A stretch of 54,257 nt of DNA from a virus (lineage: Duplodnaviria > Caudoviricetes): the IMG/VR virus record IMGVR_UViG_3300031938_000005, positions 1 through 54,257 of that record; one strand, given 5' to 3'. The notes below the pieces were generated by a model. It saw nothing but the letters and a program-made list of their open reading frames with translations. It had not been told where the DNA came from and made no database searches. Numbering within the stretch: the first letter of the stretch is position 1; the number at the start of each line of letters is the position of its first letter. The position numbers and the translations under genes are program-made. Below are positions 4,084-27,428 of this stretch, piece by piece.

Positions 4084-4110
4084 CTATTATAATCCGCGAT
4101 CTACGTGCGA
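4084..4110 (-). promoter_or_regulatory. phage promoter motif copy (TCGCA-N14-TATAAT-AG)
   Basis: TCGCACGTAGATCGCGGATTATAATAG; same spacing as the 11 other copies. Confidence 0.7.
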
Positions 4111-4118
4111 CATAATAC

Positions 4119-4619
4119 CTAATTCTCGATCACCTCGAAAAATTGGTACGTCGGCCACACATAGGTTCGGGCATGGGATGCCGCCAATATCTCACTGAAC
4201 AGAAGTCCATAGAGCATCGACGCTTCTTGAATACGTGAGAACTCTTGACGGGTCTTCACCTCTCTGACTGGGATATGGGAAGTCTTGAATGCTTGAGTGT
4301 CAAACTGCAAGTGGTACTTGATGGCGAAGTATCGCGGTCGCCACAGCATGTTCTCCACGGAACAGTTCCAGCGGTTGCCGTCTCTGTGGATCAGAGATAT
4401 GAAGTCGTTCCTCTTAGGAGGCTCCATGAACGTCTTACCGACCAGCTGGTTAACACTCCTCGTATATGTCTCACCATCACGTAGCAGGTTTACCTTGAGC
4501 TGGCCTTGCTGGTTTGTGGACGGAACTAATATCCGTCTGCTCTTGAGTGACTCGATCCTTCCTTGATCGCTGATCCTATATTTCGGGAACTCGGCGATCT
4601 CTCGCCATTCCTCGTTCAT
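4119..4619 (-). CDS. NUMOD4/HNH endonuclease-like protein
   Basis: EEWREIAEFPKYRISDQGRI (NUMOD4-like) and IHRDGNRWNCSVENMLW (HNH-like). Confidence 0.75.
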   Translation of the reverse strand: MNEEWREIAEFPKYRISDQGRIESLKSRRILVPSTNQQGQLKVNLLRDGETYTRSVNQLVGKTFMEPPKRNDFISLIHRDGNRWNCSVENMLWRPRYFAIKYHLQFDTQAFKTSHIPVREVKTRQEFSRIQEASMLYGLLFSEILAASHARTYVWPTYQFFEVIEN

Positions 4620-4648
4620 CTTCCTCCTTGTTATCCCTGTGACGCCTG

Positions 4649-4937
4649 TTGTCAAAAATCCGTTTTTGCTCGATAAAACTTTTACTTTTCTAAGACTTAA
4701 TACCTAATACTATTCTCGCGCGTATATAGGGGATAGGTAATTAGGTATTAAGTGTCAAGAAAAAGAAAGTTTTCTCGACTTTTTTTGGGTTTTTGACAAG
4801 ATCAGCGATTCCTGCGATGTAATACCCAAGAACTGAGAGAATTTGAGCACAACGAGCCCTCGTCCGATCGCAACCCGGCTTGACAAATCCGTTTCAGATT
4901 TGACAAGATCTGTCAAATTTCTGACAAGATTTGACAG
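4649..4937. other. candidate replication origin: ~150-bp AT-rich imperfect palindrome plus TGACA boxes
   Basis: ACTTAATACCTAAT (4695-4708) / ATTAGGTATTAAGT (4740-4753), outer arms TTGTCAAAAA / TTTTTGACAA, five TGACA/TGTCA boxes at 4880-4937; non-coding, next to the helicase. Confidence 0.6.
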
Positions 4938-6470
4938 TTACCAGGTCATCTTGCGACCGAACGAGGACTCGTTGAAGGACTTTTTGGCACTCAGCGACTT
5001 GCGAATCGCTAGATCAATCCACGATTTCGACACCAACGCGTAGTAGTACAACGTCGAATATGGAGTGTTCAGTCGATCGATTCGTCCGAACGCCTGATGC
5101 CAGTTCTTGTACGAATACGTGAGTGAGTAGAATACCATCGCATCGGTTGTGATGCAGTTCCACCCTTCAGAGCCGGCTGCGTATTGAACTAGATATACCC
5201 AACGCTCACTCGTTGGTACTGAATCGTGCTTGTGGCCGTTCCACTCCGCAAGCACTACATCGCTCGATATCCCAGGTAAGGGTGACGAGCTCTGAGAAGA
5301 CTTTGCTACACAGGTGGACCCAACTGACTGGCTTAGTGTGGTCATGACTCCAGACTTGCCCGAGGACGCGAGGTTCGAGGAAAGATTCCGATCGCGCTGG
5401 ATCGAATCCTGGAGCCTCTGGATCTCGTTCGATCGCGTAATCGTTGAAGTCCCACTCCTTGTCTTGCTCATCGATCTTGATGAATCGGACGGCTCGACAT
5501 CCTGAGCAGCCACACCCTGGTCCAGACTTCTGAGGTTCAGGGTCTGGTCCGAACCATTCTCCCGTTGCTGTGCTGTGTCGGTTCTTCCTGAGGATGCTCC
5601 AAGAGAGATTTGATTCTCGCTCGTAAGAGTCCTCAGCTGCTCGAGCTCGTAGTCGAAGTTGTAGAACACAATCAGGCGTGGATGTTTCTCCATTAACGTT
5701 CGCACAGATAACAAACGCGTCGGGTCGGAATTCACAACCTTCCTGCTTACACGGAACAATTCCGCTACGTCCCTCAACGGCTTGTCCTCGAACACATTCC
5801 ACCGCTTCTTCACCACGGTGGTCAGGGCTTCCTGGTCGAACTCCACGTTCTTCCATGTTAGTTTCCTTGTCGTTGTGCGGGTGAACGGCATGTCCACCAG
5901 AATTTGGTTGCGTAGGCGAACTAGCTTGCCCGTACTTAGGTATCGCTGGACCTTCGGGAACTTGACTCGAGGCATCCAGACGACATGCTCGTCCACGAAA
6001 GCGGTCTTGTTCTTGTAGAACCCGTTTGCCACGAATACAGGAATGTAGTCCATCCATGTATCGCCAGGTGTCGCAGAGAGCAGAACCCATCGGTTAGCCC
6101 GGGCAATCTTGTAGAACGATTTGGTCCACGACCCACTTCCCACAAGACGTTGTTCGTCAAATACAAAGAACGCGTCTTTGACATCTACATACCGTCCGAT
6201 GTTGTTCCAGGAGTCCACAGTGAGGACTCCTCGAAGGGTGGCATCTCTTGATGTACCCACTCCAAAGGCCACGAATTCCGCGAGCCAGTCGAGAGAGTCT
6301 CGCTTCTTGGCTGTGGTGATAACGTAGACATCACGAGGAGATTCTTTCTCTGCGTAGTACGCAGCGACGGTACGAGACTTTCCGGTCCCGACATCCCCGA
6401 CGAGGATGTTTCCGTTCTGGAGTTCATCAACTGCCTTTCTCTGGTGGGGATATAGGGGTACCTCCTTCAT
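4938..6470 (-). CDS. SF2 (SNF2-like) DNA helicase with a ~120-aa insertion
   Basis: LYPHQ, GDVGTGKS, FDEQR, LSATPG, EGWN, QAFGRIDR motifs. Confidence 0.85.
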   Translation of the reverse strand: MKEVPLYPHQRKAVDELQNGNILVGDVGTGKSRTVAAYYAEKESPRDVYVITTAKKRDSLDWLAEFVAFGVGTSRDATLRGVLTVDSWNNIGRYVDVKDAFFVFDEQRLVGSGSWTKSFYKIARANRWVLLSATPGDTWMDYIPVFVANGFYKNKTAFVDEHVVWMPRVKFPKVQRYLSTGKLVRLRNQILVDMPFTRTTTRKLTWKNVEFDQEALTTVVKKRWNVFEDKPLRDVAELFRVSRKVVNSDPTRLLSVRTLMEKHPRLIVFYNFDYELEQLRTLTSENQISLGASSGRTDTAQQRENGSDQTLNLRSLDQGVAAQDVEPSDSSRSMSKTRSGTSTITRSNEIQRLQDSIQRDRNLSSNLASSGKSGVMTTLSQSVGSTCVAKSSQSSSPLPGISSDVVLAEWNGHKHDSVPTSERWVYLVQYAAGSEGWNCITTDAMVFYSLTYSYKNWHQAFGRIDRLNTPYSTLYYYALVSKSWIDLAIRKSLSAKKSFNESSFGRKMTW

Positions 6471-6651
6471 GCGCCTCCCTTCCGTCTAATGAATGATGAG
6501 TGGTCAACCAGCCGAACGATCCGTCCTTACCGGGCACCGGTTCGGTTTTCGGGCCACATATACAGTCGGGAACGTGATCGATCAGGTCATTGATCGGAAC
6601 TACGTGAACTGTGGAAAATGCGTCACGCTCACGTTTGCATTCCCAACTCAT
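6427..6651 (-). CDS. hypothetical protein (His/Cys motif)
   Basis: 74-aa ORF overlapping the helicase start; H..CxC..HHSLDGRE. Confidence 0.6.
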   Translation of the reverse strand: MSWECKRERDAFSTVHVVPINDLIDHVPDCICGPKTEPVPGKDGSFGWLTTHHSLDGREAHEGGTPISPPEKGS

Positions 6652-6654
6652 ATG

Positions 6655-6798
6655 CTATGACTTCTTCGGAGTACGAATAACGTGCTGCTTTTCACAGCGG
6701 TCATCGTTGCAGTTATAGAACATCCATGATGGATGCGTCTTGTCCAGCCGGCCGATAAATCTCAGCTCGCACTTGTGATGTTTCTTGAGTATTTTCAT
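6655..6798 (-). CDS. small Cys/His-rich hypothetical protein (47 aa)
   Basis: Manually read MKILKKHHKCELRF...; start overlaps the upstream stop (ATGA). Confidence 0.5.
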   Translation of the reverse strand: MKILKKHHKCELRFIGRLDKTHPSWMFYNCNDDRCEKQHVIRTPKKS

Positions 6799-7019
6799 CG
6801 GACCATTCCGAGTCGAGCCTGGCGCTGACGCTCAACCTCCATTGCGATTGCGGGGTTGTAGGTCTGACCATCGATCGACACGATTCCCGCTCCAGGGAAT
6901 ATGGACGGGCTGTGGTCGAGGCTGATCGCCATGATCTTGACCTTCTCGAAGAGCTTGATCGGGCGAACCTCATGACAGATACACCCTTCGCCGGCGCACT
7001 TGTCGATTGACTTCTTCAT
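6795..7019 (-). CDS. hypothetical protein
   Basis: MKKSIDKCAGEGCICH..., AAAGGAG RBS. Confidence 0.6.
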   Translation of the reverse strand: MKKSIDKCAGEGCICHEVRPIKLFEKVKIMAISLDHSPSIFPGAGIVSIDGQTYNPAIAMEVERQRQARLGMVR

Positions 7020-8040: not shown

Positions 8041-8237
8041 TTCGACTTCCGATCTCGAGATATGAATGCGGCGAAACAGTAGGCAAGCAACCCCCACCAC
8101 ATGATGTAAACGAAAGGCTCTAGTGCTTCTCTCATCGGGTATGCGCCGCCCAGTCGAACACAATCCACAGCATGATCAGCACGGCGATGGTGAGAATGAT
8201 CTCCGCGACGATTCGCATCTGACGCATTATGGCTCTC

Positions 8238-8411
8238 CTAACGAGTGTGAATAACGACCATGGCGTCTCCGCTCATCGCCATTGGATCTGAGACAATATG
8301 AAGAAGATCAGCACCGCGGGGCTCAAGGTCTGGGTACTTTTCGACATGCTCCTCCCAAGTGAGACAACCGTCCTCACATTCGGGAACGAAGTACTTTTCG
8401 ATTCCGTCCAT
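8238..8411 (-). CDS. hypothetical protein
   Basis: MDGIEKYFVPECEDGC..., TAATG coupling. Confidence 0.55.
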   Translation of the reverse strand: MDGIEKYFVPECEDGCLTWEEHVEKYPDLEPRGADLLHIVSDPMAMSGDAMVVIHTR

Positions 8412-9206: not shown

Positions 9207-9208
9207 TT

Positions 9209-9601: not shown

Positions 9602-9632
9602 TGCGGGATCTCTCCTTCTACTTTGGCGTGTA

Positions 9633-9867: not shown

Positions 9868-10128
9868 CTACTTCTCGTGAAGCGCGATGACCTCGAAGTC
9901 GAAGTCGTCCATGATGCTTACAACGCTCTTGTTGTCGTAGTAACCGGTCTGAAGACGTCGCTGAATCGTGTTCGCCGCGTCAGTCAATATCTTGATCTCG
10001 CGAGCGGTCTGCTCATCGATCTCCTTAATTGACTTACGGTAGCGAATACGGCTCATGACGTAGTTCGTTCCGGTTGCTCCGATGACAAAGCCTGCAGCAG
10101 CAAGGGCGGTTAGGGTCTTCTTGTTCAT
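9868..10128 (-). CDS. small protein with N-terminal hydrophobic helix (cassette gene)
   Basis: 86 aa, GAAAGGA RBS, bracketed by promoter motif and terminator. Confidence 0.8.
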   Translation of the reverse strand: MNKKTLTALAAAGFVIGATGTNYVMSRIRYRKSIKEIDEQTAREIKILTDAANTIQRRLQTGYYDNKSVVSIMDDFDFEVIALHEK

Positions 10129-10150: not shown

Positions 10151-10177
10151 TCATTATGTGCCTTGTGATTCCTACGA
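10151..10177 (-). promoter_or_regulatory. phage promoter motif copy
   Basis: TCGTAGGAATCACAAGGCACATAATGA. Confidence 0.8.
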
Positions 10178-14322: not shown

Positions 14323-14646
14323 CTATGTATGCCAGAAGTGGATCTCCCGGTACTCGTAGACGCTTTTGCCCACCGCAAGTGCGAGGGCTTGTTCTGCAGT
14401 AGCCCCTGGGGAATTCTGCCAGCCATCAAGTAACACGACCGCATCTGCGTCGTGAATAATGAACTTGCAGTAATCCTCAAAAGCGTTCTTCAGATGGAAC
14501 TTGCCGTCTGGGCTGTAAAGCTCTTCCCAGTCAGCGGGGTTGTAGACCTCGTGTTTGAGTTCCCGAAGAGTCTTTGCCGCCTCGCGGAACGCGGGGTAGT
14601 TCAACTCAGGGAGACCCGTCATGGGACCTGACAGATATAGCTTCAT
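14323..14646 (-). CDS. DUF4406 / nucleoside deoxyribosyltransferase-like protein
   Basis: YLSGPMTG..N.PAF...NPA...DAVVLL.GW..S.GA..E. Confidence 0.8.
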   Translation of the reverse strand: MKLYLSGPMTGLPELNYPAFREAAKTLRELKHEVYNPADWEELYSPDGKFHLKNAFEDYCKFIIHDADAVVLLDGWQNSPGATAEQALALAVGKSVYEYREIHFWHT

Positions 14647-17600
14647 CAGGGCGCCACAAACTTGTCGAAGTCACCGTACTTGGTGATTGCCTTGTACGCA
14701 TCGTCTCGAAGTCCCTCGAAATATGACTCGTCGATCTCGATGTCGCTGATCATCGTCTTGGCCACGTTGGCGTCGAGCCAGAAGAACCCCTTCGTGCCTG
14801 AAACGGCATACTGCTTGCCGTCGTGAACACGATATAGGATCCCACCGCCCGACTCCGGAGTGACCGGGACAAAGCGACCGATGCGTCCGACGAACTGGAA
14901 CCCTCGAATTCCGCGATCGGCCCACATAGGCTTCTGCACAGAATCGAAGTCGATGTAGATCGTACCCTTTGAGACCTGCTTGGTCTCACAGAGGTCGTCC
15001 CACGTCACTTCCTCGCCGGAGAACATCTTCTTGAACACATATGGGTGCTGGAATTGCGCACCGGTTGCGTCCCACTTGCCTACCAACTCGGGCTCATCAG
15101 CGTGCCATCCATACCGTGAGATATAGACAGCATCGTTGACTAGACAGAAGCGGTCATAAGTCGCCTCGTGCTCGAAGTCGTAGTCGTACTTGGCCCCGAT
15201 CTCGTTGACGAAATCGATGTCCTCCTGAGAGGGGTTGACCAACTTGATGGAGTCCGTCTTGATGTGGACGACCTCCATACCTCGTTCCTCACACAGATTC
15301 TTCAGCTCGATCATGAACAGAGCACCACGCTTGGCGACGATGTTGTCGATATTGCGCGGGTCCCTGAACGGGTTGTCGAACTTCGCACTCGTCAGACCGT
15401 AGACGATGTTGATTACGATCTTCAGAGCATACGAGAGCTCCTTCGCCGAGGAGGGGTCCTCGAGATATGGAGCAAGCCGGCCATCGAGCATGTGACGGGC
15501 AGCCTCGTAGTCCTTGTGCTTGATCGCCAGTCGCGCGTTGAGCAGGTCCGCGAAATTCTCAGTGTACGGACCAAACGCATTCAAAGCGATGATGGACGAA
15601 GGATGCATCGATGCGACGTCCAGCACAACGACGTTTTCGTACATGCCGGGCTTGGCATATACGTAACCGCCCTCGCTGGGGTCCTCTCCGCGGTACTTGC
15701 TCTTGCTGGACCAGCCATCCGGATCCGGATTTGCCGGCGAACGGAACTCGTTGTACTCGTAGCCCGGGAAAATGGTGCTCAGATCGGTGTAGACGAACTT
15801 CGACTGCGGGTTGCGGTCGTTGCCGAAAATGATCTTTGCTGTCTGCTTCTGTGTGGTGTCATTGACTGACAGACCACTCAGTTCGGCAAGGATCTGCCGC
15901 GCCGTGAAGTCAGCCTTTCGGGCCTTGTGCGTTGCCTCAGTCGCCAAGACGTCATTCCGGCAGTACTCACATACCTTCGGGATGAGAACATCCGGAACAG
16001 GCTCATCCCATGGAATATCGAGCTCCATGTGACGCAGACCAAGCTCGATCTCGAACTTCTTGAGGCTCTGCTTCTTGGATGAGTAGTCGTAGATATCGGC
16101 GAAGGAGAGACCGTAGGCCTCCCCGAACATCGATCCCACAGAGCCTTCGATGATCTTCTGGCTCAGCTTGTACAGCTGCTCGTTGTCGTACCCGAGATAT
16201 CGTGCGTACAAGATGTGGTTGTCGTACCGTCGGTTGTTGAATCCGATCAGCTTCATGCTGAACAGTGGCTCAACGTCCTGCGGAGACGGGTTGATCATCG
16301 TGACGATGCTCTCTTCAGGAGCATCCTCGAACTTCCAGCAGACCACGAACAGGTTCGGGTACACCTCGAGGTCGAAGAATACGTGCCTCGCATCCCGAAC
16401 TGCTCCGGGCTTGAAGAACGCATCGCCAGGCTGAGGCTCCGGCTTTGGAACCACGGTCTGATCAGTCGGCTCGCTCTTCCACTTCATCTGCTGCACGATC
16501 TTGAGGCACTGGACCGGCTGATTGGTGGAGTTGTTCGCAAACGCCATGATCTTCGGACGCATGTCGGTCACGTCATAAGGCATTCCTGAGTTGTACGCGT
16601 CGTCGAGGATCTTCTTCATGAAGTCGATAGAGACCTTAGTCCCTGGCATGATCTCCTTTCGGAGATTCTTCATGAGGAGCTCTCTTAGCCCCCTCTCCGA
16701 CTTCAGTTGCTTGTCTCCGAGCACTTTTTTCTTCTCCTTCACGGGAAGCCCGCTGTTGATATCGGCTACCGGCACATTGTTGCATTTGCTGAGCCGGCGG
16801 CGGAGCGAGGCATCTCCGAGGAGAGTCTTGACCTCGATTCCATCGGCATAGTTCTGAGACAACTCAGATATGTCGTCCATCCCTGTCCAGTTGTAGTGAA
16901 GGTGAACCCCATTACCACCTTGGCTTAGTTCAGCATAGGTAGCCGGCCACTCACTAGCCGCTGCGAGGTTCAACTCAAGAGATTTGTTACCGGTCTCGTC
17001 ACGAATATCGAAGTCAATGACGATGTGCTGCTCCGGAACCTTCACGTAGTGGAGTTGGCTTGTGTCGATCTCCGCAAGGGTAGTCTTCACGTTGGCCCAA
17101 CGCTGAGATGGAACGATGTTGTTGAACTCGTTCTCCCGGCCATACTGCGCCGGCATCTCTGCGTACTCCAAGTCGAACAAGGAAATATCCTCCTCCATAA
17201 CGAGCGAGAAGGTTGCGACGTCGTTCTCGGTCACAGGGGCCTTGAACTTATCTGCTATGAATCCGTCGTAATAGCTACGGATTGTTTGTCCTTCCACCGT
17301 ATGACGATCCTTGAACTCGCGGAAGTAGTTGCGCAGTTCCTCACGAGCCTTGTACATCGGAAGTACGCGGTCAATGCCCGTTTCCGAGCAGTATTCCTTG
17401 TACATCGTGTAGGCCTGCTTCAGGGAAATGCCATCCTGAGCCTTAAATATGTCATAGTTTGCCTCGATGAAGTTGAAGAACACATCAGTTTGGAACATCA
17501 TCTCCAACGGTTGGTACGCGTTGTAGTAGTTCTTCCCCATCTTCCGATAGGCCTCGAGGCACTGATGCGCGATAGCACCAAGCTCGAAATCGATCTGACT

Positions 17601-18533
17601 CATCAAGGTGTGGTAGTGGTTGGGTGCCAGCTTGTCGCCAGTCGGATGAACATCGATCAGACGTCGGATGATACCCGACTTTGCGTCTGCAATCTTCACC
17701 GGCTGGTTAGTACCCATGAACAGAAAAGCATTCACCTTACCGCGGTAGGTAGGCTTGTACTTCTCGTTCATCTGAATCTCCTCATGGGAGATAATGGAGT
17801 TGAACTTGGAGTTGTCCTCCATCTTGGACAGGTCACCATCCTGTTGGATGGCAGCCAGTGGATTGTCTCGGAACGCCTCGGTCGCGAACGACGAGTTGTT
17901 GGAGACTAGCGCCTTGGCCTCGAAAACCGTCGTGTAGCCCGCGAAGAGCTTCTCGATGATATTCATGATGGTGGACTTGCCGGTGCCACCAGGACCATAG
18001 AACACTATGAACTTTTGAATGCGCTTTGCATCGCCGGCAACGATAGCGCCGATCGCCCACTCAATCTTGGCACGCTCTTCCGGAGAATATAGCGTCCCAA
18101 CAATCTCGTTCCAAGCGTCGCACTTTCCGGGGGCCAGTGGATATGGAAGTCGTCGGCTCACGTAGTCCGTCTTCTTCACTTCGGTGTTCGCGAAGGTCAA
18201 CTCAGAGTCCAGCTCGTGCGAGTTGTCGCTGATGTTCTGCAGGAACTTTCGAAATGCATACCAGCCGCCGTTAGTTGCGTTACGCAGGTACTTGACGCTG
18301 TAGTCCATTCCGTCTGCTCGCGCTTTTTCCGCGAACTTCTTCAGCTCAAGGTCGACCAAACGCTGGACGTCGTACTCGTCCTTCGACCACAAGCCTGCTT
18401 CTTCATCCCAGACTGCGTAGAAGTGCTTACCCCGAACCATCAGGTCCTGAGATCGCCCAACGACGAAGTCCGGAAATATCTCCGGAGGTTCTCCCTTCTT
18501 TCCATCGCGAATGCCCACTGTGAAGAAATCCAT
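14646..18533 (-). CDS. fused SF3/D5-like helicase - primase - 3'-5' exonuclease - family B DNA polymerase
   Basis: GPGGTGKST; IDFD and GVHLHY (AEP-like primase); FDLE, GFNN..YD, YCRND (Exo I-III); DVASMHPS, KIVINIVYG, IKTDS (Pol B A-C). Confidence 0.85.
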   Translation of the reverse strand: MDFFTVGIRDGKKGEPPEIFPDFVVGRSQDLMVRGKHFYAVWDEEAGLWSKDEYDVQRLVDLELKKFAEKARADGMDYSVKYLRNATNGGWYAFRKFLQNISDNSHELDSELTFANTEVKKTDYVSRRLPYPLAPGKCDAWNEIVGTLYSPEERAKIEWAIGAIVAGDAKRIQKFIVFYGPGGTGKSTIMNIIEKLFAGYTTVFEAKALVSNNSSFATEAFRDNPLAAIQQDGDLSKMEDNSKFNSIISHEEIQMNEKYKPTYRGKVNAFLFMGTNQPVKIADAKSGIIRRLIDVHPTGDKLAPNHYHTLMSQIDFELGAIAHQCLEAYRKMGKNYYNAYQPLEMMFQTDVFFNFIEANYDIFKAQDGISLKQAYTMYKEYCSETGIDRVLPMYKAREELRNYFREFKDRHTVEGQTIRSYYDGFIADKFKAPVTENDVATFSLVMEEDISLFDLEYAEMPAQYGRENEFNNIVPSQRWANVKTTLAEIDTSQLHYVKVPEQHIVIDFDIRDETGNKSLELNLAAASEWPATYAELSQGGNGVHLHYNWTGMDDISELSQNYADGIEVKTLLGDASLRRRLSKCNNVPVADINSGLPVKEKKKVLGDKQLKSERGLRELLMKNLRKEIMPGTKVSIDFMKKILDDAYNSGMPYDVTDMRPKIMAFANNSTNQPVQCLKIVQQMKWKSEPTDQTVVPKPEPQPGDAFFKPGAVRDARHVFFDLEVYPNLFVVCWKFEDAPEESIVTMINPSPQDVEPLFSMKLIGFNNRRYDNHILYARYLGYDNEQLYKLSQKIIEGSVGSMFGEAYGLSFADIYDYSSKKQSLKKFEIELGLRHMELDIPWDEPVPDVLIPKVCEYCRNDVLATEATHKARKADFTARQILAELSGLSVNDTTQKQTAKIIFGNDRNPQSKFVYTDLSTIFPGYEYNEFRSPANPDPDGWSSKSKYRGEDPSEGGYVYAKPGMYENVVVLDVASMHPSSIIALNAFGPYTENFADLLNARLAIKHKDYEAARHMLDGRLAPYLEDPSSAKELSYALKIVINIVYGLTSAKFDNPFRDPRNIDNIVAKRGALFMIELKNLCEERGMEVVHIKTDSIKLVNPSQEDIDFVNEIGAKYDYDFEHEATYDRFCLVNDAVYISRYGWHADEPELVGKWDATGAQFQHPYVFKKMFSGEEVTWDDLCETKQVSKGTIYIDFDSVQKPMWADRGIRGFQFVGRIGRFVPVTPESGGGILYRVHDGKQYAVSGTKGFFWLDANVAKTMISDIEIDESYFEGLRDDAYKAITKYGDFDKFVAP

Positions 18534-20962: not shown

Positions 20963-20963
20963 T

Positions 20964-21814: not shown

Positions 21815-21832
21815 TTTGTTCCTCTTTCAAGA

Positions 21833-21857
21833 GAAAATGAGAACCCTAGAGGCTCTC
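21833..21857 (-). terminator. intrinsic terminator
   Basis: GAGAGCCT-CTA-GGGTTCTC followed by ATTTTCTC. Confidence 0.6.
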
Positions 21858-22121
21858 GGTTTGGTCGTCTGACGTGATCTGCTTGATCTTGCGAGCCTTG
21901 ATCTTCCCGACAAGATCGTCAACGAAGAGTTCCTTCTCGTCATCCACCATCCCGGTGAGTACGGAAGAAAGGCCGCCAGCCATCAGATGGGTGATCAACT
22001 TGTGATCTTCCAGCGATGGAATGGCCTTCTTCAAGGCTTTTGCTGCAACGATCTCGATGGCCGATCCGATCACGGCGTCGAGAGTGAAATTGAGAAGCCT
22101 CTTAGCGGCTTTCTCGTCCAT
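21846..22121 (-). CDS. cassette gene, hypothetical protein
   Basis: 91 aa directly downstream of a promoter motif. Confidence 0.75.
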   Translation of the reverse strand: MDEKAAKRLLNFTLDAVIGSAIEIVAAKALKKAIPSLEDHKLITHLMAGGLSSVLTGMVDDEKELFVDDLVGKIKARKIKQITSDDQTESL

Positions 22122-22148
22122 TGGACTTTCCTTCTTTCAGATAGGGTC

Positions 22149-22175
22149 TCATTAAGGGCTTTGTTTTTCGTGCGA
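22149..22175 (-). promoter_or_regulatory. phage promoter motif copy
   Basis: TCGCACGAAAAACAAAGCCCTTAATGA. Confidence 0.75.
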
Positions 22176-22194
22176 GGGTGGGCGCATGTTCTAT

Positions 22195-22292
22195 TGAGAC
22201 TCGGCTGTCGTTTAAAGATTCGTCCTTGAAAGGACTAGGCCTCCTGAATAGGGCGAGACCCCGCGAAGGACCCTGGCCATCTCCCAGTCGCA
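22195..22292 (-). ncRNA. candidate structured ncRNA
   Basis: ORF-free, nested stems GACTGGG/CCGAGTC, GGAGAT/ATCTTT, GGCC/GGCC, GTCCT/AGGAC. Confidence 0.4.
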
Positions 22293-22300
22293 GATATATG

Positions 22301-22867
22301 TCAGCCGAGGTCAGCCAGCTCGCGTTGGAGGCGCTCCCTCTTCTGCTCAGGAGTCTCCTCGTCCTCCGGCGTCACGTCCACGACACTCTTGCTTTCGCTG
22401 ACCGTGGGCGCGGACACCTGCTTGCTCTGGAAGTCCTGCGGCTGCTTCGGACCGTTCGCGGCCTCAGCCTTGCGTGCCTCCTCGATCAGGTTCGGCGGCA
22501 TGACGTCGTTGAGGAACGACATGGCACCCTCTGGGTCCTGGAAGAGCGCCCACAGGAAGGCGTCGTAGGCAGCGCTGTCTCGGAAATCCTCGAGGATCTC
22601 GGGACGCTGACGGAACTTGGCCTCACCATCGACGGTGACTCGCTTGCCGTAGGACAGGTTGATGAACATCTTGACAACGTCTAGGATCTCCTGCTTCTCC
22701 GACGTCAGGAGCTCACGCTCAGCGCCGCTGACCATGTCCTGCAGGGCCTCGAGTCGGTCACCCAGGTGGAGGTTGTCGGTGATGGTGTCGACCTTCAGGT
22801 GGAAATACAGGTCCTGACTGTGGGGCTTGCTGTCGAAGTCCTTGTAGTTGACAGTCTTCTTGATCAT
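22301..22867 (-). CDS. conserved hypothetical protein
   Basis: MIKKTVNYKDFD...LYFHL...SYGKR...F..SAAY. Confidence 0.8.
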   Translation of the reverse strand: MIKKTVNYKDFDSKPHSQDLYFHLKVDTITDNLHLGDRLEALQDMVSGAERELLTSEKQEILDVVKMFINLSYGKRVTVDGEAKFRQRPEILEDFRDSAAYDAFLWALFQDPEGAMSFLNDVMPPNLIEEARKAEAANGPKQPQDFQSKQVSAPTVSESKSVVDVTPEDEETPEQKRERLQRELADLG

Positions 22868-22880
22868 TTTTTCGCGGGTC

Positions 22881-23288
22881 TCACTTTCCGAATTCAGTGA
22901 CGAGCGCGAGCTGGCCAATCCAGTACTCACGCGAGTGTCGTTGGTAGTTGTTTGCTTCTTGCTCCGTCAGACGAACAACCTTGAGATCCCCGCAGTCCGC
23001 GAGAATATCGGCGTAGTCATCCTCGTATCGATCATCGATCTCGCTGCCTGGGAATGGGCCATAGAGAATGATGCCGTCCGTCTTGACGGCGTTCGAGTGC
23101 TCGAGGTAGTACTCACACCCATCGTTCGGGTGTGGATCTGGAAGAACGTGGATCATTCGAGCGAAATGAATCCATACCCCATGAGTATCGCAGAGCTTCC
23201 CTTCGGGAGCTTTGCAAGACTCTTCCGGACACTCAATGGTCAGGAAATCACCGAACGTCTTTAGTGCTTCTTCTCGGGTCAGGGGCAT
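22881..23288 (-). CDS. hypothetical Zn-finger protein
   Basis: ECPEESCKAPEGKLC...HFAR motif. Confidence 0.65.
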   Translation of the reverse strand: MPLTREEALKTFGDFLTIECPEESCKAPEGKLCDTHGVWIHFARMIHVLPDPHPNDGCEYYLEHSNAVKTDGIILYGPFPGSEIDDRYEDDYADILADCGDLKVVRLTEQEANNYQRHSREYWIGQLALVTEFGK

Positions 23289-23482
23289 TAGTTCTCCAGA
23301 TATGGGATCAGCGGATTCCTCCGCGCATGGTTTTTGATCCGAACAGTCACGGCTCCATTGATTTGGAAACCGAGCATCGACGGAACACGCTCCAGGTAGA
23401 GCCCAAGATCTGTCAGAGATCGACAAATATGGGGTGCCTGGACCGCGTTGTCGCCGAAGTCAAGAGTGACTTCGTATTCCAC
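23288..23482 (-). CDS. hypothetical protein (64 aa)
   Basis: GTG start after AAAGAGG; TAATG coupling. Confidence 0.55.
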   Translation of the reverse strand: MEYEVTLDFGDNAVQAPHICRSLTDLGLYLERVPSMLGFQINGAVTVRIKNHARRNPLIPYLEN

Positions 23483-23501
23483 TTTGGCCTCTTTCGAGGG
23501 A

Positions 23502-23903
23502 TCAGGGAGTCGGGGACTCCGGGAAGCTTGCCTCATCGACGATGCTCTTCTGAGCGGTGCGGAGAACCGAACGACGGTAGATCTGTCGACCGTTCTCGAG
23601 CAGGACCTTGTCGTAACCCGTGTCGTGAAGCACATAGGCGACGCCGGCGATGATGAGGGCGATGCGGGTCTTGCGGAACTTCTTGACGGTCTTCTCGCCG
23701 GTGAAGCCCTTCTTGACGAGGCGCTGACGAGCCTTCGCCAGGTACTTCGCTTCGCCGGAGATGTCGGCCAGGGAAATGGCCTTGGTGAACGCCTCGTGGT
23801 AACCCGAGATGTTCTCCGTCTTCCAAGCGATGTCGGCCTGCTTGATTCCGGTGATGGCCCACTCGTAGGCGTCGTTCTCAGCGAGCCTCTCAATTGCGTT
23901 CAT
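23502..23903 (-). CDS. hypothetical membrane protein
   Basis: MNAIERLAE..., GAAAGGA RBS, one TM segment. Confidence 0.7.
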   Translation of the reverse strand: MNAIERLAENDAYEWAITGIKQADIAWKTENISGYHEAFTKAISLADISGEAKYLAKARQRLVKKGFTGEKTVKKFRKTRIALIIAGVAYVLHDTGYDKVLLENGRQIYRRSVLRTAQKSIVDEASFPESPTP

Positions 23904-23936
23904 GCATCTTCCTTTCTCGGAAACATGGATAAAGCG

Positions 23937-23966
23937 AAAGAGAAAGCCCACGATTGATTCGCGGGC
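23937..23966 (-). terminator. intrinsic terminator
   Basis: GCCCGCGA-ATCAA-TCGTGGGC-TTTCTCTTT. Confidence 0.7.
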
Positions 23967-23995
23967 GATCCCTTTTCCTTCTTGCCGGTAGGCGA

Positions 23996-24181
23996 TCAGG
24001 CGGAGGTGTTGTCGGTGACGATCTCGACGTCCACCGAGTCCTTGAGGAACTTCGTCGCCGCGAAGGTGAGGCCAGCGGCCACCACGACGGTGGCAACGGC
24101 AGCAGCCTTGCGGTTTCGGAAGACCTTCTTGAGGATCTTCGGGGAGTCGACCTCGGTCACAACAGCAACGGTCTCGTTCAT
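23996..24181 (-). CDS. cassette gene, 61-aa single-TM protein
   Basis: GAAAGGA RBS, MNETVAVV..., hydrophobic AAAVATVVVAAGLTFAA. Confidence 0.8.
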   Translation of the reverse strand: MNETVAVVTEVDSPKILKKVFRNRKAAAVATVVVAAGLTFAATKFLKDSVDVEIVTDNTSA

Positions 24182-24210
24182 TTTCGTTTCCTTTCGGTGT
24201 TGAGGGGGTC

Positions 24211-24237
24211 TCATTATGACCCGTGTAAAACCTGCGA
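24211..24237 (-). promoter_or_regulatory. phage promoter motif copy
   Basis: TCGCAGGTTTTACACGGGTCATAATGA. Confidence 0.8.
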
Positions 24238-24330
24238 GGAGCCTGCCCCGATCATTCACAATCTTCGAGGCAGGCGTCCACGTCAGAATAACCGACCTTG
24301 TAGAACACCCACGGGCTAGGTGGCCAGGCC

Positions 24331-25125
24331 TTACCGAAAGGAGTAGTAGTCTCGAATCGGCTTCGTTCGGTACTTCACCGCCATCACAGTGGTCTGTCCG
24401 CTGTCATGGATGACCGCGTCATATCCCACCTCGAGGAGGTTGTCGCTCGTCCAGCCGACCTCGTCCGACTCCTGTGTCTTGGACAGACCCAGGTGCTCGT
24501 AGAAGTCGGTCAGAGACGAATATCCATGCACGTTGAGCTGGTGGTTCAGGTCGTTCACAGCCCGGTTGACGGCCTCCATGTTGCTACGGAAGTACCGACC
24601 ACTCCACGAGTCCTGGAAGATCTGGTCAGCGTCGTTCGTGACGATGACGATGTTCTCCTTGGTGGGCGGGTTACTGTCGACACGGTCCTGGGCAACTGCC
24701 ACATCGACCTTCTCTGCCTTGTTCTTCCCGATCTGCTCGACCACCTTCTCCCGATAGTCCACGAAGGCCTTCTCGGAAATAGTGAATGCCGCAGCCATAG
24801 CTGCAGAGCGGGAAGTGCTGATCTTGTTGGAACCGACCACCGAAGCGACGGTGATCAGGCCCACGCCACAGGCCGGGACATACGACTTCCAGGTCAGCGC
24901 CAGTTTCTCTTGGAACGTGGGCTCATATGAGCTCTGCGTCGCAGTTCGTCGGATGTTCTCCGAATAACGCTTGTCCGCGATGATCTCCGCCGACTTGTAG
25001 CCACCACGGGCTGCAAGATATGCGGTTCCGATGACGCCAACGGCGGCAACGACGGTCAACAGAACCGGACTGTTGTCGATGGTGAACTTCTGGGCCTTCT
25101 TGGCGACATCACTTGCTGAGGTCAT
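24331..25125 (-). CDS. DUF6353-like protein (paralogue of 20054..20962)
   Basis: NSPVLLT..AAVGV.GTAYLA, YREKV, D.WSGRYF, SL.DFY..LG, VGW. Confidence 0.75.
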   Translation of the reverse strand: MTSASDVAKKAQKFTIDNSPVLLTVVAAVGVIGTAYLAARGGYKSAEIIADKRYSENIRRTATQSSYEPTFQEKLALTWKSYVPACGVGLITVASVVGSNKISTSRSAAMAAAFTISEKAFVDYREKVVEQIGKNKAEKVDVAVAQDRVDSNPPTKENIVIVTNDADQIFQDSWSGRYFRSNMEAVNRAVNDLNHQLNVHGYSSLTDFYEHLGLSKTQESDEVGWTSDNLLEVGYDAVIHDSGQTTVMAVKYRTKPIRDYYSFR

Positions 25126-25462
25126 TGTGGTACTCCGTTGCACGGTCGATGGTGTCTTGGTCTCGCGCTTCGATCTCCTTCTGGAGACGCTTAGCGTCCT
25201 TCTGTTCCTCGATCATCTGGTCGTAGATCGAGAGGTTCTTCCTCTCCGGCTCACTCGGGAGAAGAACAATGTGATTCCGCAGGCTGTTGCGCTTGATCTT
25301 ACGCTTGAACAGCCGCTTGAGTGCCCATCGCTGGAAGTCATGGACAAGGTCTCGGAAGCCTTCCCACATGAGGTACATCCCGATGAGCGGGAACAACGAG
25401 AAGACCGCCAGAATGACGGCCATGATGATCCATTCAAAGACCATCAGAATGAAGTCGAGCAT
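25109..25462 (-). CDS. membrane protein
   Basis: Hydrophobic N-terminus, AAAGGAG RBS. Confidence 0.7.
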   Translation of the reverse strand: MLDFILMVFEWIIMAVILAVFSLFPLIGMYLMWEGFRDLVHDFQRWALKRLFKRKIKRNSLRNHIVLLPSEPERKNLSIYDQMIEEQKDAKRLQKEIEARDQDTIDRATEYHNDLSK

Positions 25463-25490
25463 TCTGCGCTCCTTTCAGATATGGGGTCCC

Positions 25491-25628
25491 TTAGGACCGG
25501 CGGCGCATTTCGCGCACGAATATGAAGATGAGCCAGAGCCCACCAGTGAGAAGCGTCATCGCACAATCCGCGATGAACTTCCAAAAGCCGTAGTTACGTC
25601 GCCGTTCAACGATGACATACTTCGACAC
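25491..25628 (-). CDS. small membrane protein (45 aa)
   Basis: Manually read MSKYVIVERRRNYGFWKFIADCAMTLLTGGLWLIFIFVREMRRRS; AAAGGAGG RBS. Confidence 0.7.
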   Translation of the reverse strand: MSKYVIVERRRNYGFWKFIADCAMTLLTGGLWLIFIFVREMRRRS

Positions 25629-25661
25629 GGGTCCTCCTTTCTGGGTTTGGGTATTAGGCAG

Positions 25662-25724
25662 AAAAAAAAAGGAAGAGTTGTATTACACTCATGTGTAGTA
25701 CGCTCGCTTAGCGCGAATCTCTTC
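25662..25724 (-). ncRNA. small three-way-junction RNA (cassette sRNA B)
   Basis: Promoter motif, then GAAGAG..CTCTTC closing stem (53 nt), two internal hairpins, T9 tract. Confidence 0.7.
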
Positions 25725-25749
25725 ATTATGAGCCATGTTTTTTCTGCGA
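25723..25749 (-). promoter_or_regulatory. phage promoter motif copy
   Basis: TCGCAGAAAAAACATGGCTCATAATGA. Confidence 0.8.
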
Positions 25750-25751
25750 GG

Positions 25752-25812
25752 AAAAATAAGAAGAGGTGTAGCGACTCGAACGCATGGCTCCCTAAAATGA
25801 GCTAATCTCTTC
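25752..25812 (-). ncRNA. small tRNA-elbow-like RNA (cassette sRNA A)
   Basis: GAAGAG/CTCTTC stem, GCTC-ATTTTAGG-GAGC (D-arm-like), GCG-TTCGAGT-CGC (T-arm-like), TTATTTTT tail. Confidence 0.7.
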
Positions 25813-25868
25813 ATTATGTACCCTGTGATTCCTGCGAAACTGAAAGCCCTTGTGGGGCTTTGCAGCTT
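25811..25868 (-). repeat. terminator+promoter repeat unit
   Basis: AAGCTGCAAAGCCCCACAAGGGCTTTCAGTT-TCGCAGGAATCACAGGGTACATAATGA. Confidence 0.9.
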
Positions 25869-25871
25869 GGA

Positions 25872-26030
25872 TCAGTCGTTCTGGTTCTTCTTCTGGATGG
25901 CGTCGTACGCGTGAACAGCGAGGGAGGCCGCGACCAGGGCGGTGAAGGCGTAGCGCTTGATTTTGGTGTTGCGCCGGCTCTTCTTCGCCTGGGTCTCGAT
26001 CTCCGAGGTGTTGTCGGTGACGATGTGCAT
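25872..26030 (-). CDS. cassette gene, 52-aa single-TM protein
   Basis: Manually read MHIVTDNTSEIETQAKKSRRNTKIKRYAFTALVAASLAVHAYDAIQKKNQND; GAAAGGA RBS. Confidence 0.75.
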   Translation of the reverse strand: MHIVTDNTSEIETQAKKSRRNTKIKRYAFTALVAASLAVHAYDAIQKKNQND

Positions 26031-26060
26031 TTCAGGGTCCTTTCAGAGGGGTGAATGGTC

Positions 26061-26118
26061 TCATTATATGGCCCGTAATTCCTGCGAAACTGAAAGCCCT
26101 TGTGGGGCTTTGCAGCTT
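26061..26118 (-). repeat. terminator+promoter repeat unit
   Basis: Near-identical to 25811-25868; promoter TCGCAGGAATTACGGGCCATATAATGA. Confidence 0.9.
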
Positions 26119-26123
26119 GCTGC

Positions 26124-26315
26124 TCAGGCAGCGGGTTCGACGTCCCAACTCATGTCGTAGTACTCATCGAAGAGGTTGTGCTCCTTGAGGAATTCGTTCC
26201 ACTCACGAGCGTTGCGCATCTGCAGAGCGATGCCTACCGAGGCGGTGGCAACTACTGCAATGGCGACGCGGTGGTCGGAAACGAACTTCCTCGTACGGGC
26301 GATCTTGTTCTTCAT
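26124..26315 (-). CDS. cassette gene, 63-aa single-TM protein
   Basis: MKNKIARTRKFVSDHRVAIAVVATASVGIAL...FLKEHNLFDEYY. Confidence 0.8.
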   Translation of the reverse strand: MKNKIARTRKFVSDHRVAIAVVATASVGIALQMRNAREWNEFLKEHNLFDEYYDMSWDVEPAA

Positions 26316-26344
26316 TGTATGTCCTTTCATAAGGGGTTTGGGTC

Positions 26345-26402
26345 TCATTATATGGCCCGTAATTTCTGCGAAACTGAAAGCCCTTGTGGGGCTTTACAGC
26401 TT
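26345..26402 (-). repeat. terminator+promoter repeat unit
   Basis: Near-identical unit; promoter TCGCAGAAATTACGGGCCATATAATGA. Confidence 0.9.
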
Positions 26403-26405
26403 GGA

Positions 26406-26558
26406 TCAGTTCTCGTTGGTCTCGGTCAGCTTCTCGACGAGCTTGTCGTCCGCAGCCTTGGCGAGGTCCGTGACGAACTGGTAAAGGCCGTAAGCGGCCA
26501 TACCAAGTGCGACAAGTACCAGGCCGTCATTAGCGGTCTTAGCAGTTTTCTTAAGCAT
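26406..26558 (-). CDS. cassette gene, 50-aa single-TM protein
   Basis: MLKKTAKTANDGLVLVALGMAAYGLYQF... Confidence 0.75.
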   Translation of the reverse strand: MLKKTAKTANDGLVLVALGMAAYGLYQFVTDLAKAADDKLVEKLTETNEN

Positions 26559-26587
26559 GATGGGTCCTTTCAGAGGGGTGAATGGTC

Positions 26588-26645
26588 TCATTATATGACC
26601 CGTAAATTTTGCGAAACTGAAAGCCCGTGTGGGCTCTCAGCTTTA
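26588..26645 (-). repeat. terminator+promoter repeat unit
   Basis: AAAGCTGAGAGCCCACACGGGCTTTCAGTT-TCGCAAAATTTACGGGTCATATAATGA. Confidence 0.9.
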
Positions 26646-26647
26646 AC

Positions 26648-26806
26648 TCAGTACATCTCCGTGCGGGGTGCAGCGTGGTATGAATTGGTGGCGAAGGCGT
26701 ACTCCGGCTTCCGTTCCTCGATAACGGTCTCGACGACCTGCTTGGGGTCTTCGTTCCGCATCTTGGCTTGGGCCAGGGCAATCGCTTCGGTCAGGTTCTT
26801 CGGCAT
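26648..26806 (-). CDS. cassette gene, 52-aa protein
   Basis: MPKNLTEAIALAQAK..., GAAAGGAAG RBS. Confidence 0.75.
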   Translation of the reverse strand: MPKNLTEAIALAQAKMRNEDPKQVVETVIEERKPEYAFATNSYHAAPRTEMY

Positions 26807-26835
26807 GTTGCTTCCTTTCAAAGTGGTTAATGGGT

Positions 26836-26862
26836 TCATTATATGGCTCGTAAATTCTGCGA
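26836..26862 (-). promoter_or_regulatory. phage promoter motif copy
   Basis: TCGCAGAATTTACGAGCCATATAATGA. Confidence 0.85.
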
Positions 26863-26917
26863 CATTAATCCGGTTTATCCCCCCGGGCAAATTTTTAGAG
26901 TCCAGGATTGAACTCGG

Positions 26918-26978
26918 GAAAGGAACCATACCTTTGCAACTTGTGCATTGGCGCCTCTAATGAAGCGGGATTCCTTTC
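26918..26978 (-). ncRNA. small three-way-junction RNA (cassette sRNA C)
   Basis: GAAAGGAA/TTCCTTTC closing stem, GCTTC-ATTA-GAGGC and TGCA-CAAGT-TGCA hairpins, no ORF. Confidence 0.6.
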
Positions 26979-27003
26979 ATTATGATCCGTGATTATCGTG
27001 CGA
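26977..27003 (-). promoter_or_regulatory. phage promoter motif copy
   Basis: TCGCACGATAATCACGGATCATAATGA. Confidence 0.8.
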
Positions 27004-27006
27004 ACC

Positions 27007-27050
27007 AAAACTAAGAGGCCCTGTAAGGTGTTTAGTCTCACAGGGCCTCT
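27007..27050 (-). terminator. intrinsic terminator
   Basis: AGAGGCCCTGT...ACAGGGCCTCT-TAGTTTT. Confidence 0.8.
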
Positions 27051-27083
27051 CGGCTTTGATGTCTGTTCAGTTGGCTTGGCGGT

Positions 27084-27377
27084 TCAGCCGAGCTTCTTGA
27101 CGAATCCGAGGGCCTTGGTGGAAATCACGTTCACGTCTTCATGACGGATGATCAACGCGATACCGATCAGATTTGCCGCAACGGTCAGAACAACATCAGG
27201 GCTCGGTCGCCACTTGGGAGCACGGTCGTGCTCGCGCAGCTTGTAGAGCTTGATGAGGTTGTCTGCCATCTTGGTGTACTTATCAGTATCGGGGTCGACC
27301 GTCTGCATGTCGTCGTGCAAACGTTCGATTGCCTTCTCAAGGTCCGTCGTCTCGACGGGGGGCTTCGGGGTGAACAT
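27084..27377 (-). CDS. cassette gene, conserved hypothetical protein
   Basis: SPDVVL.VAANLIGI.LII.HE..NVI.TKA.GFV motif. Confidence 0.8.
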   Translation of the reverse strand: MFTPKPPVETTDLEKAIERLHDDMQTVDPDTDKYTKMADNLIKLYKLREHDRAPKWRPSPDVVLTVAANLIGIALIIRHEDVNVISTKALGFVKKLG

Positions 27378-27401
27378 AGCGTTCTCCTTCTGTATAGGGT
27401 C

Positions 27402-27428
27402 TCATTATAAGAGATGTTATTCTCGCGA
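27402..27428 (-). promoter_or_regulatory. phage promoter motif copy
   Basis: TCGCGAGAATAACATCTCTTATAATGA. Confidence 0.75.

Follow-up and report, generated by a model that had tools for sequence, protein, structure and literature searches.

A candidate promoter for a single-chain two-barrel RNA polymerase encoded by phages of Actinobacteria and Firmicutes

The T7 promoter is a rigid, one-stranded motif of ~30 base pairs (bp), with an upstream recognition part, a TATA-like part abutting the start and a conserved initial transcript. T7 polymerase is Pol I-like and unrelated to the two-barrel RNA polymerases; its gene is one of the early genes that the host transcribes, and its targets are middle and late genes. 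We analysed a motif repeated twelve times in a 54,257-bp virus record of IMG/VR (IMGVR_UViG_3300031938_000005; "the window" denotes this whole stretch of DNA), which also encodes a 909-amino-acid (aa) homolog of the single-chain two-barrel polymerases. The motif shares the T7 promoter layout and, like it, is present in many copies in one genome with a polymerase gene; the T7 motif is contiguous, whereas here three blocks lie a helical turn apart. The promoters of phage N4 are hairpins, which the window sites are not. Sigma-70/sigma-A promoters have the TATAAT hexamer in common with the window sites, and the window polymerase carries a helix-turn-helix (HTH) domain like sigma region 4. The sites differ from them in having no -35 element at 16-18 bp, an absolutely fixed spacing and an inferred start 0-2 nucleotides (nt) from the hexamer end.

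Closer in enzyme type are two phage systems. The available text on P23-45 (PMC10770324) describes what is likewise a siphophage with single-chain two-barrel polymerases, the virion protein gp96 and the non-virion protein gp64, and with AT-rich and GC-rich promoter motifs upstream of early genes. According to the same text, motif presence tracks the polymerase among relatives and is backed by mapped starts and chromatin immunoprecipitation. Structures of the gp64 type (8f72, 8f5m) are among the best fold matches of the window model; a PDB sequence search found no sequence similarity between the window polymerase and the P23-45 enzymes. The window enzyme, 909 aa long with HTH domains at either end, is a free protein, in contrast to the tape-measure fusion of P23-45, and its putative promoter is a tripartite motif with a TATAAT-like block, known here from sequence alone. 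YonO of the Bacillus prophage SPbeta is likewise a single chain, distantly related to multisubunit enzymes and cellular RNA-dependent RNA polymerases (RdRPs); the available text of that report (PMC5467207) states its promoter sequence and any factor requirement as not determined. YonO serves one late operon, whereas the window has 12 motif copies ahead of early and replication genes.

The family of the window enzyme has been described in a preprint (10.1101/842583, Koert/Erill) as a putative polymerase that carries a DxDGD loop and, at either end, HTH domains; it is grouped there with YonO-like and crAss-like homologs; promoters are not mentioned in the available part of that text. Our literature search of main texts, on the motif words, this polymerase family and its promoters, found no description of a promoter and no paper on the activity of this enzyme. 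Otherwise it returned a single annotation mention of the family, and nothing in the Arthrobacter and Rhodococcus phage papers.

The motif, its copies and its spacing

An earlier note on this DNA had claimed twelve minus-strand copies of a 27-bp pattern, TCGCA-N14-YATAAT-GA, with fixed spacing and with none in the structural module. Exact matches to the pattern numbered 8, all on the minus strand, compared with a mean of 0.00 and a largest count of 0 in 100 dinucleotide-preserving shuffles. When up to 2 mismatches were allowed there were 13 matches (shuffle mean 1.28, largest 6), including all 12 claimed sites, 8 of them exact and 4 with 1-2 mismatches. A matrix built from the 12 sites gave 12 minus-strand matches above 12 bits, nothing above 8 bits on the plus strand of the whole window, and no match at all in the structural module (27429-54257). 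The sites, in gene direction, are as follows.

27402-27428, minus strand: site 1, a TCGCG variant with 1 mismatch (37.5 bits), just after the holin gene; 97-aa open reading frame (ORF) at 27084-27377
26977-27003, minus strand: site 2, exact; would drive a structured non-coding RNA
26836-26862, minus strand: site 3, exact; would drive a 52-aa ORF at 26648-26806
26588-26614, minus strand: site 4, exact, with the repeated terminator hairpin upstream; 50-aa ORF at 26406-26558
26345-26371, minus strand: site 5, exact, with the repeated terminator hairpin upstream; 63-aa ORF at 26124-26315
26061-26087, minus strand: site 6, exact, with the repeated terminator hairpin upstream; 52-aa ORF at 25872-26030
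25811-25837, minus strand: site 7, exact, with the repeated terminator hairpin upstream; would drive small RNA 1
25723-25749, minus strand: site 8, exact; would drive small RNA 2
24211-24237, minus strand: site 9, exact; would drive a 61-aa ORF at 23996-24181
22149-22175, minus strand: site 10, CTTAAT hexamer, 1 mismatch; 91-aa ORF at 21846-22121
10151-10177, minus strand: site 11, a TCGTA variant with 1 mismatch; 86-aa ORF at 9868-10128
4084-4110, minus strand: site 12, 2 mismatches, 23.9 bits against 35-45 elsewhere; heads the nuclease-exonuclease-polymerase operon

The thirteenth match (8224-8250) was rejected as a promoter. It shares nothing with the twelve sites beyond the pattern and scores below 5 bits by the site matrix, and because this extended conservation is absent and the score is low it is probably a chance match. 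A half-motif, TCGCAGGAATCGC at 4791-4817 on the minus strand, was also rejected, having no hexamer and scoring 11.7 bits; it may be a decayed promoter copy.

Spacing was invariant. With a relaxed regular expression, the spacer was 14 nt in 12 of 12 window sites and 10-13 or 15-18 nt in none. The same was seen in 40 loci, of which the window is one and the others were not chosen by motif: 47 matches had a spacer of 14 and 0 had any other spacer from 10 to 18. Copy number, fixed spacing and the empty structural module are thus as the earlier note had given them. Its pattern was also correct, although the 27-bp description understated the conserved extent. The fuller motif reads TCGCA-N5-TACA-N5-TATAAT-GAGACC, with a fixed central AC/TACA and GAGACC(C) right after the hexamer. 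Numbered from the T of TCGCA as index 0, the blocks are TCGCA at 0-4, TACA at 10-13 and TATAAT at 19-24. They are about one helical turn apart and so would face one side of the DNA. Window hexamers are CATAAT (6/12), TATAAT (5/12) and CTTAAT (1/12). Among 288 unique sites defined by their flanks alone, a set that includes loci found through the motif itself and so retains some bias, each hexamer position was 90-98% conserved, and G15 and C17 were conserved as well.

A hexamer so close to a perfect TATAAT raises the alternative that these are host sigma-A early promoters that use the hexamer alone. The extra blocks would then bind a phage or host regulator, and the phage polymerase would, like YonO, serve the structural genes, using an unrecognised promoter of their own. 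We consider this alternative unlikely. A consensus scan for TTGACA, 16-18 nt and TATAAT called 0 of the 12 sites, and no site had a TG extension. Three such scans over 50,001 bases gave 9 weak sigma-70-type calls, against ~20 in shuffles; in the AT-rich genome of Lactococcus phage CHPC971 the same scan gave 27 calls against 21 expected and is uninformative. A sigma-70 reading of the 12 sites was accordingly set aside: their conserved upstream block lies 14 bp off the hexamer, and there is no -35 at 16-18 bp.

The polymerase and its association with the motif

The polymerase gene lies in an operon with two nuclease genes, behind site 12.

452-3181, minus strand: single-chain two-barrel RNA polymerase homolog, 909 aa, phrog_4291, with DFDGD at residues 526-530 and HTH domains at both ends
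3181-4036, minus strand: two nuclease genes with the polymerase, an endonuclease-like ORF (3701-4036) and a Cas4-type exonuclease (3181-3849)

The nuclease-nuclease-polymerase gene order is kept in relatives, and both nuclease genes are predicted to be co-transcribed with the polymerase. The 909-aa protein matched PHROG 4291 ("RNA-dependent RNA polymerase") with E=0 over residues 20-909. Pfam placed HTH domains near both ends; the C-terminal one (~residues 886-907) passes Sigma70_r4_2 with 27 bits against a cut-off of 25.7, and the RdRP match was sub-threshold (16.2 bits, cut-off 23.8). DFDGD was invariant in 35 close homologs (alignment A1) and in 9 homologs from two phyla (alignment A2, drawn from phages of Gordonia, Streptomyces, Arthrobacter, the human mouth and Lactococcus). 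No PDB chain was found by sequence at E up to 1, so a fold search was needed. An AlphaFold2 model (mean predicted local distance difference test score, pLDDT, 75.7) was compared by Foldseek, and the best matches were QDE-1 (E 1e-7), P23-45-type gp64/gp62 (8f72 and 8f5m, E 2e-6 to 4e-6) and RDR2 (E 2e-5), with low template modelling scores of 0.26-0.40. Far weaker matches were the crAss-like phi14:2 virion polymerase gp66 (6vr4_A, E 0.03) and cellular beta-prime subunits. Judged by these residues and the predicted fold, ORF 452-3181 is a real two-barrel RNA polymerase homolog resembling QDE-1 and P23-45 gp64.

The protein could instead be a specificity factor that redirects the host core polymerase, its catalytic centre doing another job. 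The HTH domains at its two ends, with a match to sigma-70 region 4 at the C terminus, are compatible with such a role, and most database records name the protein merely "helix-turn-helix DNA-binding protein". The invariance of DFDGD and many core residues over two phyla argues against it. So do the fold matches to active two-barrel polymerases, and Pfam detected no sigma region 2 or other core-binding region in the 909-aa protein. We regard the specificity-factor explanation as improbable. By-eye comparison of the C-terminal HTH recognition helix with the upstream block in 9 sequences revealed no clear pattern.

The family comprises at least 8000 protein clusters at E 1e-10. A homolog was found in 250 isolate phage records, full length in 249, and among the matches listed (40 rows) the gene is at the right genome end in nearly all. 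Residues 25-40, H-Y-G-x-x-R-x-S-G-R-Y-P-W-G-S-G, are invariant from actinophages to Lactococcus phages and are predicted to be disordered (pLDDT <50); this stretch could be a packaging, ejection or partner-binding signal. In the CHPC971 locus (L145, 46040-46460) a 449-bp gap before the polymerase gene holds at least 3 near-copies of a unit that starts with CTATCACGAAAAAAC, together with incomplete copies of AACTTCGGGA, and might be an origin or packaging site.

Motif and polymerase were found together in both search directions, a co-occurrence that the earlier note had proposed looking for in related genomes. A scan of IMG/VR with the motif plus GAGACC returned at least 103 stretches, many records having several copies. 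Among the matches listed, the 46 records of at least 35 kb (all such records, chosen by length alone) were searched for the enzyme: 43 encode a homolog (E 1e-197 or better). All 22 records with a completeness of 90% or more are among the 43, and the 3 without a homolog are 60-66% complete. In the reverse direction, 18 of 18 records found solely through the polymerase hold the pattern within 1 mismatch. All matches within each of these 18 records lie on one strand, and a reversed-pattern control gave 0 in every record. Lineage variants among them include TCGCG with CAT replacing ACA, and ACGCA/GCGCA.

The window matrix also found matches above 12 bits on the plus strand of four isolate genomes: 12 in Gordonia phage Tanis, 7 in Arthrobacter phage Cheesy, 12 in Salk and 12 in Streptomyces phage Kardashian. 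There were 0 on their minus strands. Most of these matches lie just past the tail and lysis genes, ahead of small genes. Two oral phage records carry 6 and 4 copies. Kardashian hexamers are often degenerate (TATGAT, TACTAT, TTAGAT, TGTAAT, TTATAT, TTTAAT), 5 of 12 being without A at position 2, and TCGCA, TACA and ATGAGACCCC stay fixed despite this drift. Invariant flanks around a hexamer lacking that A speak against recognition by sigma-A through the hexamer.

In Lactococcus phage CHPC971 the window matrix found nothing. CHPC971 has a motif of its own, TTTTACA-N5-CTATAGT-AG, at nine plus-strand sites, with YCACA ten bases 5' of TACA in 6 of the 9. Lactococcus phage P162 has WTTYA-N5-TACA-YRCCC-TATAAT-G at 12 sites. 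In both phages the three blocks lie at the exact positions of the actinophage blocks. The window polymerase is 39% identical to those of CHPC971 and P162 (tblastn), and these two are ~49% identical to each other. Since the block positions are the same and the letters differ, the geometry has been kept between the two phyla and the letters of the upstream block follow the polymerase lineage, a further point against host sigma-A as the reader.

Transcription units and the inferred start

The earlier note had the sites preceding either a ribosome-binding site with an ORF or a structured RNA, and this division holds. By a script heuristic, 10 of the 12 sites have a Shine-Dalgarno (SD)-like word and start codon 12-37 nt past the hexamer. 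The ORFs opened after these sites are 50-111 aa long, with the exception of site 2 (at 27003), where the frame has 17 codons inside a stable RNA fold; for that reason site 2 is assigned to the RNA class. Nine sites would thus be messenger RNA (mRNA) promoters and three (those at 27003, 25837 and 25749) promoters of structured RNAs. The RNA elements and terminators are listed here.

26898-26978, minus strand: structured RNA after site 2, with a 10-bp closing helix from the base after the hexamer that encloses two hairpins
25752-25812, minus strand: small RNA 1, with a 6-bp closing helix GAAGAG/CUCUUC directly after the hexamer, then a U-rich tail
25661-25724, minus strand: small RNA 2, with a 6-bp closing helix GAAGAG/CUCUUC directly after the hexamer, then a nine-T run
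25838-25861, 26088-26111, 26372-26395 and 26615-26638, minus strand: four near-identical hairpin and T-run terminators fused to promoter copies
4056-4085, minus strand: leader hairpin AGAAGG...CCUUCU with a T-run, beginning right after the site 12 hexamer

The closing helix of the structured RNA after site 2 spans 26978 to ~26918, and one more hairpin lies beyond it; the minimum free energy (MFE) over 140 nt is -38.9 kcal/mol, and the 17-codon frame lies within. Small RNAs 1 and 2 are ~55 nt each and stand in tandem (25661-25812, minus strand), each with its own promoter copy. Three ORFs follow small RNA 2 (25627 down to 24331) without a motif of their own, so small RNA 2 may double as an attenuating leader. 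A stretch of small RNA 1, GUUCGAGUC, has what we take to be a resemblance to the transfer RNA (tRNA) T-loop. No Rfam family matched 22000-28000 at E up to 1. The leader hairpin at 4056-4085, ahead of ORF 3701-4036, looks like an attenuator or terminator.

The positions of these helices bear on the start site. In the window's three RNA genes the MFE closing helices are 10, 6 and 6 bp long and their first base is the base after the hexamer; a U-run follows the 3' arm in two of the three. All loci gathered gave 378 unique actinophage sites, 304 with an SD-like word and start codon within 60 nt and 74 without. In the 304, the SD is most often 13 nt past the hexamer. In the 74, the first paired base peaks directly after the hexamer (23 of 74 sites; the next position has 2). 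The first paired base fell at index 23-26 in 37 sites; in 16 of these, spread over many different contigs, the closing helix has 5 bp or more and the next 10 nt include 5 or more T. A strict test (7 complementary bases from index 25 plus a T-run) was passed by 9 of the 74 sites, against a mean of 2.43 and a maximum of 6 when the 5' arms were permuted among sites (200 permutations). In 6 sites the helix begins as early as index 23, and pairing hardly ever starts earlier. The RNA genes that follow the motifs of Lactococcus phages P162 and CHPC971 have the same closing-helix pattern. In CHPC971 the SD core begins 3-6 nt past the hexamer, as in TATAGT-AGAAGGAGG.

A terminator stem needs both arms transcribed, which places the start at or before index 23-25, and a start 7 nt downstream of the hexamer would delete the SD core in CHPC971. 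Transcription most likely begins at index 23-25, inside or directly after the hexamer. Sigma-A is expected to start ~7 nt past a -10 hexamer, near index 31 here, and the predicted start would lie ~6-8 nt upstream of that. A sigma-A start would cut into closing helices and Lactococcus SDs that begin 0-6 nt past the hexamer, and the position of the start is the strongest argument against host transcription from these sites.

Two side observations concern the transcripts. In many phages (e.g. window 24211-24237) a start at the A of ATGAGACC, index 23-25, would give mRNAs that begin with AUG, and at several Tanis sites the resulting frame AUG AGA CCC CUA UGA stops exactly on the SD of the real gene. 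This AUG frame could be a leaderless mini-ORF or a coincidence. In the CHPC971 locus (L145, 26326-26445) and the P162 locus (L151, ~6261-6350), some promoter-driven RNAs enclose tRNA-like sequences, with TAGCTCAG D-loop-like and GGTTCGA T-loop-like, inside a long closing helix ending in a T-run.

At four sites (26614, 26371, 26087 and 25837) the same hairpin and T-run lie directly upstream, so that each unit runs from terminator through motif and leader to a small ORF. Terminator and promoter seem to spread together as a single cassette among small membrane-protein genes, and such spread fits the cassette shuffling reported for cluster AU phages. Small genes that each have a strong promoter and a terminator are, as a matter of general knowledge, typical of a host-transcribed early region, and here the units are what sigma-A transcription would lead one to expect.

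The same units bear on two further alternatives. The repeats might be recombination "boundary sequences" that shuffle small gene cassettes and have no transcriptional role. Four window cassettes share near-identical terminator-plus-motif units. The available text of the Giantsbane preprint (10.1101/2020.01.10.891226) reports that cluster AU phages of Arthrobacter have an intergenic repeat of 32 bp, at 28.5-30 kb, that flanks rearranged genes and is read there as a recombination boundary; it is probably the same element as the window motif. Against a purely recombinational role, the motif is one-stranded (0 opposite-strand matches in five genomes) and stands at a fixed distance from the SD and start codon (mode 13 nt). 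Single copies also precede replication genes far from the cassette region, and the geometry is kept between phyla while the letters diverge. We therefore give this alternative very little weight, although recombination at the repeats may well happen as a by-product.

The motif might also act in RNA, as a processing or stability signal within longer transcripts begun elsewhere, in which case the 5' ends inferred at index 23-25 could be processing sites. Several sites have terminator-like hairpins and T-runs directly upstream, so that little read-through RNA would arrive at them. No internal complementarity was seen in the motif when the sites were read by eye, and sigma-70 consensus scans gave no other promoter candidates in the window. 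Of the explanations considered, this is the one that we find hardest to credit. That the element is a promoter is, in our judgement, very likely.

Supply of the polymerase, late genes and meaning

The gene order of the window sets the promoters in context. The record, with a CheckV completeness of 91%, is complete or close to complete, and all its plausible genes are on the minus strand. A search for sequencing runs that contain the window listed soil-metagenome DNA runs, two of which may be its source, and no RNA run. In gene direction a first block (53151 to 27448) encodes endolysin, tail fibre, terminase large subunit, portal and a capsid/protease fusion, followed by major tail, tape measure and minor tail proteins and, ending at 27448, holin. 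After the holin gene comes a second block, a run of very small genes. The third block holds the replication genes, including a 1295-aa DNA primase/polymerase (14646-18533), which is among the genes downstream of site 10, and a helicase (4938-6470). An HNH endonuclease, two nuclease genes and the 909-aa ORF 452-3181 follow, and the last ORF, of 93 aa, is 160 bp from the end.

Some features of this arrangement stand apart from the promoters. An HNH/NUMOD4 homing-endonuclease-like gene (4119-4655, minus strand) lies between the helicase gene and the promoter of the polymerase operon, and relatives have HNH genes at the equivalent spot. Imperfect hairpins are present at both genome ends (window 54200-54257 and 1-60, minus strand): CCAAAAATAGCC...AGGCATTTTTGG at the left end and GGGGGAGGGGG...CCCCCCCTC at the right. 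ARAGORN found no tRNA in the window.

The earlier note had taken the motif as the cognate promoter of the encoded polymerase, and we find this reading probable. It draws on the co-occurrence of motif and enzyme, the conserved geometry and the absence of a sigma-70 -35 element. By sequence and structural model, the motif is likely to be read by the phage's own two-barrel polymerase and not by the host sigma-A holoenzyme. In the mechanism that we favour, the 909-aa enzyme would read the 12 tripartite promoters. The AT-rich hexamer would be the melting and initiation region, like the TATA of the T7 promoter, rather than a -10 box 7 nt upstream, and GAGACC from index 25 would be a conserved initially transcribed stretch. 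The promoters would drive the whole non-structural arm, from the small membrane-protein genes through the small RNAs with their own terminators to the replication genes, and a weak, attenuated copy would drive the polymerase operon itself. The HTH domains of the polymerase may read the upstream blocks, and the enzyme may be packed in the virion and injected, which would let it start the programme. The structural genes would depend on another enzyme or on transcription that continues through the joined genome ends. The whole package, a polymerase injected with the DNA and reading the upstream blocks by its own HTH domains, is offered tentatively, and we would sooner doubt it than rely on it.

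Several points weigh against recognition by the phage enzyme. The hexamer is TATAAT in 204 of the 288 flank-defined sites and TANNNT in 247 of 288, and some site statistics are biased by loci L009-L111, which were found via the motif. Actinobacterial sigma-A promoters often have no recognisable -35, and the host holoenzyme may bind these sites. The start-site evidence consists of predicted RNA folds and a heuristic SD search. The motif-bearing genomes are all syntenic relatives, so that common ancestry, rather than recognition, may account for the co-occurrence. A weak copy of the motif also precedes the polymerase operon, and an enzyme cannot make itself from nothing. YonO, by the available text of PMC5467207, transcribes late structural genes as one operon, and here those genes lack the motif. 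The last two points also favour the sigma-A alternative.

With its operon behind a motif copy, the polymerase model needs either virion delivery or slight firing by the host. The "self-contained" early system of the earlier note is to be qualified in the same way: the phage has its own promoters and polymerase, and the system needs virion-delivered polymerase or some host firing. At the position of site 12, Tanis, Cheesy and Salk have weak counterparts (13.6-16.9 bits) and Kardashian has less; nothing recognisable was found there in the two oral phages. Injected enzymes for early genes, as in the virion polymerases of N4 and phi14:2 (gp66), would solve this bootstrapping problem.

For the present family, evidence of a virion location comes from the "structural protein" label in the record of Lactococcus phage 1706 only (GenBank EU081845.1). 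The labelled homolog, orf75, shares 97% identity with the CHPC971 enzyme. As a database annotation, the label counts on the debit side of the argument. It is used selectively: in the morphogenesis region it is on orf6, 7, 11, 12, 13, 17, 20 and 21, with neighbours "unknown", and in the last 6.5 kb it is on orf71 and orf75 only. This selective pattern suggests that the homolog was detected in virions of phage 1706, and a homolog labelled as a virion protein argues against the sigma-A alternative. Reviews citing phage 1706 held nothing on virion proteins. On the circular map of phage D_HF4_2 the polymerase gene is just upstream of the terminase region, which fits expression with the structural genes. 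As for a second motif serving those genes, no repeat was seen at the genome ends and the matrix scan of the module was empty.

The element is most likely a promoter so far undescribed, for a polymerase clade without described promoters, although phage polymerases with cognate promoters are known in kind. It bears on the question of how minimal two-barrel RNA polymerases find their promoters. With a candidate promoter of ~30 bp, hundreds of natural variants, lineage versions from two phyla and HTH domains as candidate readers, recognition becomes directly testable. If the reading is true, the YonO/RdRP-like polymerase clade would gain its first defined promoter, and the enzyme would exemplify, in a living system, polymerase and sigma function combined in a single chain. 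Should the enzyme act on its promoter without other factors, the pair would make a compact orthogonal expression system for use in Actinobacteria and in lactic acid bacteria. If the sequences are the same, the Giantsbane recombination repeat would be re-read as a promoter. Annotators would gain a marker for early transcription units and small RNA genes in these phages, in an enzyme family that spans phages of Actinobacteria and Firmicutes.

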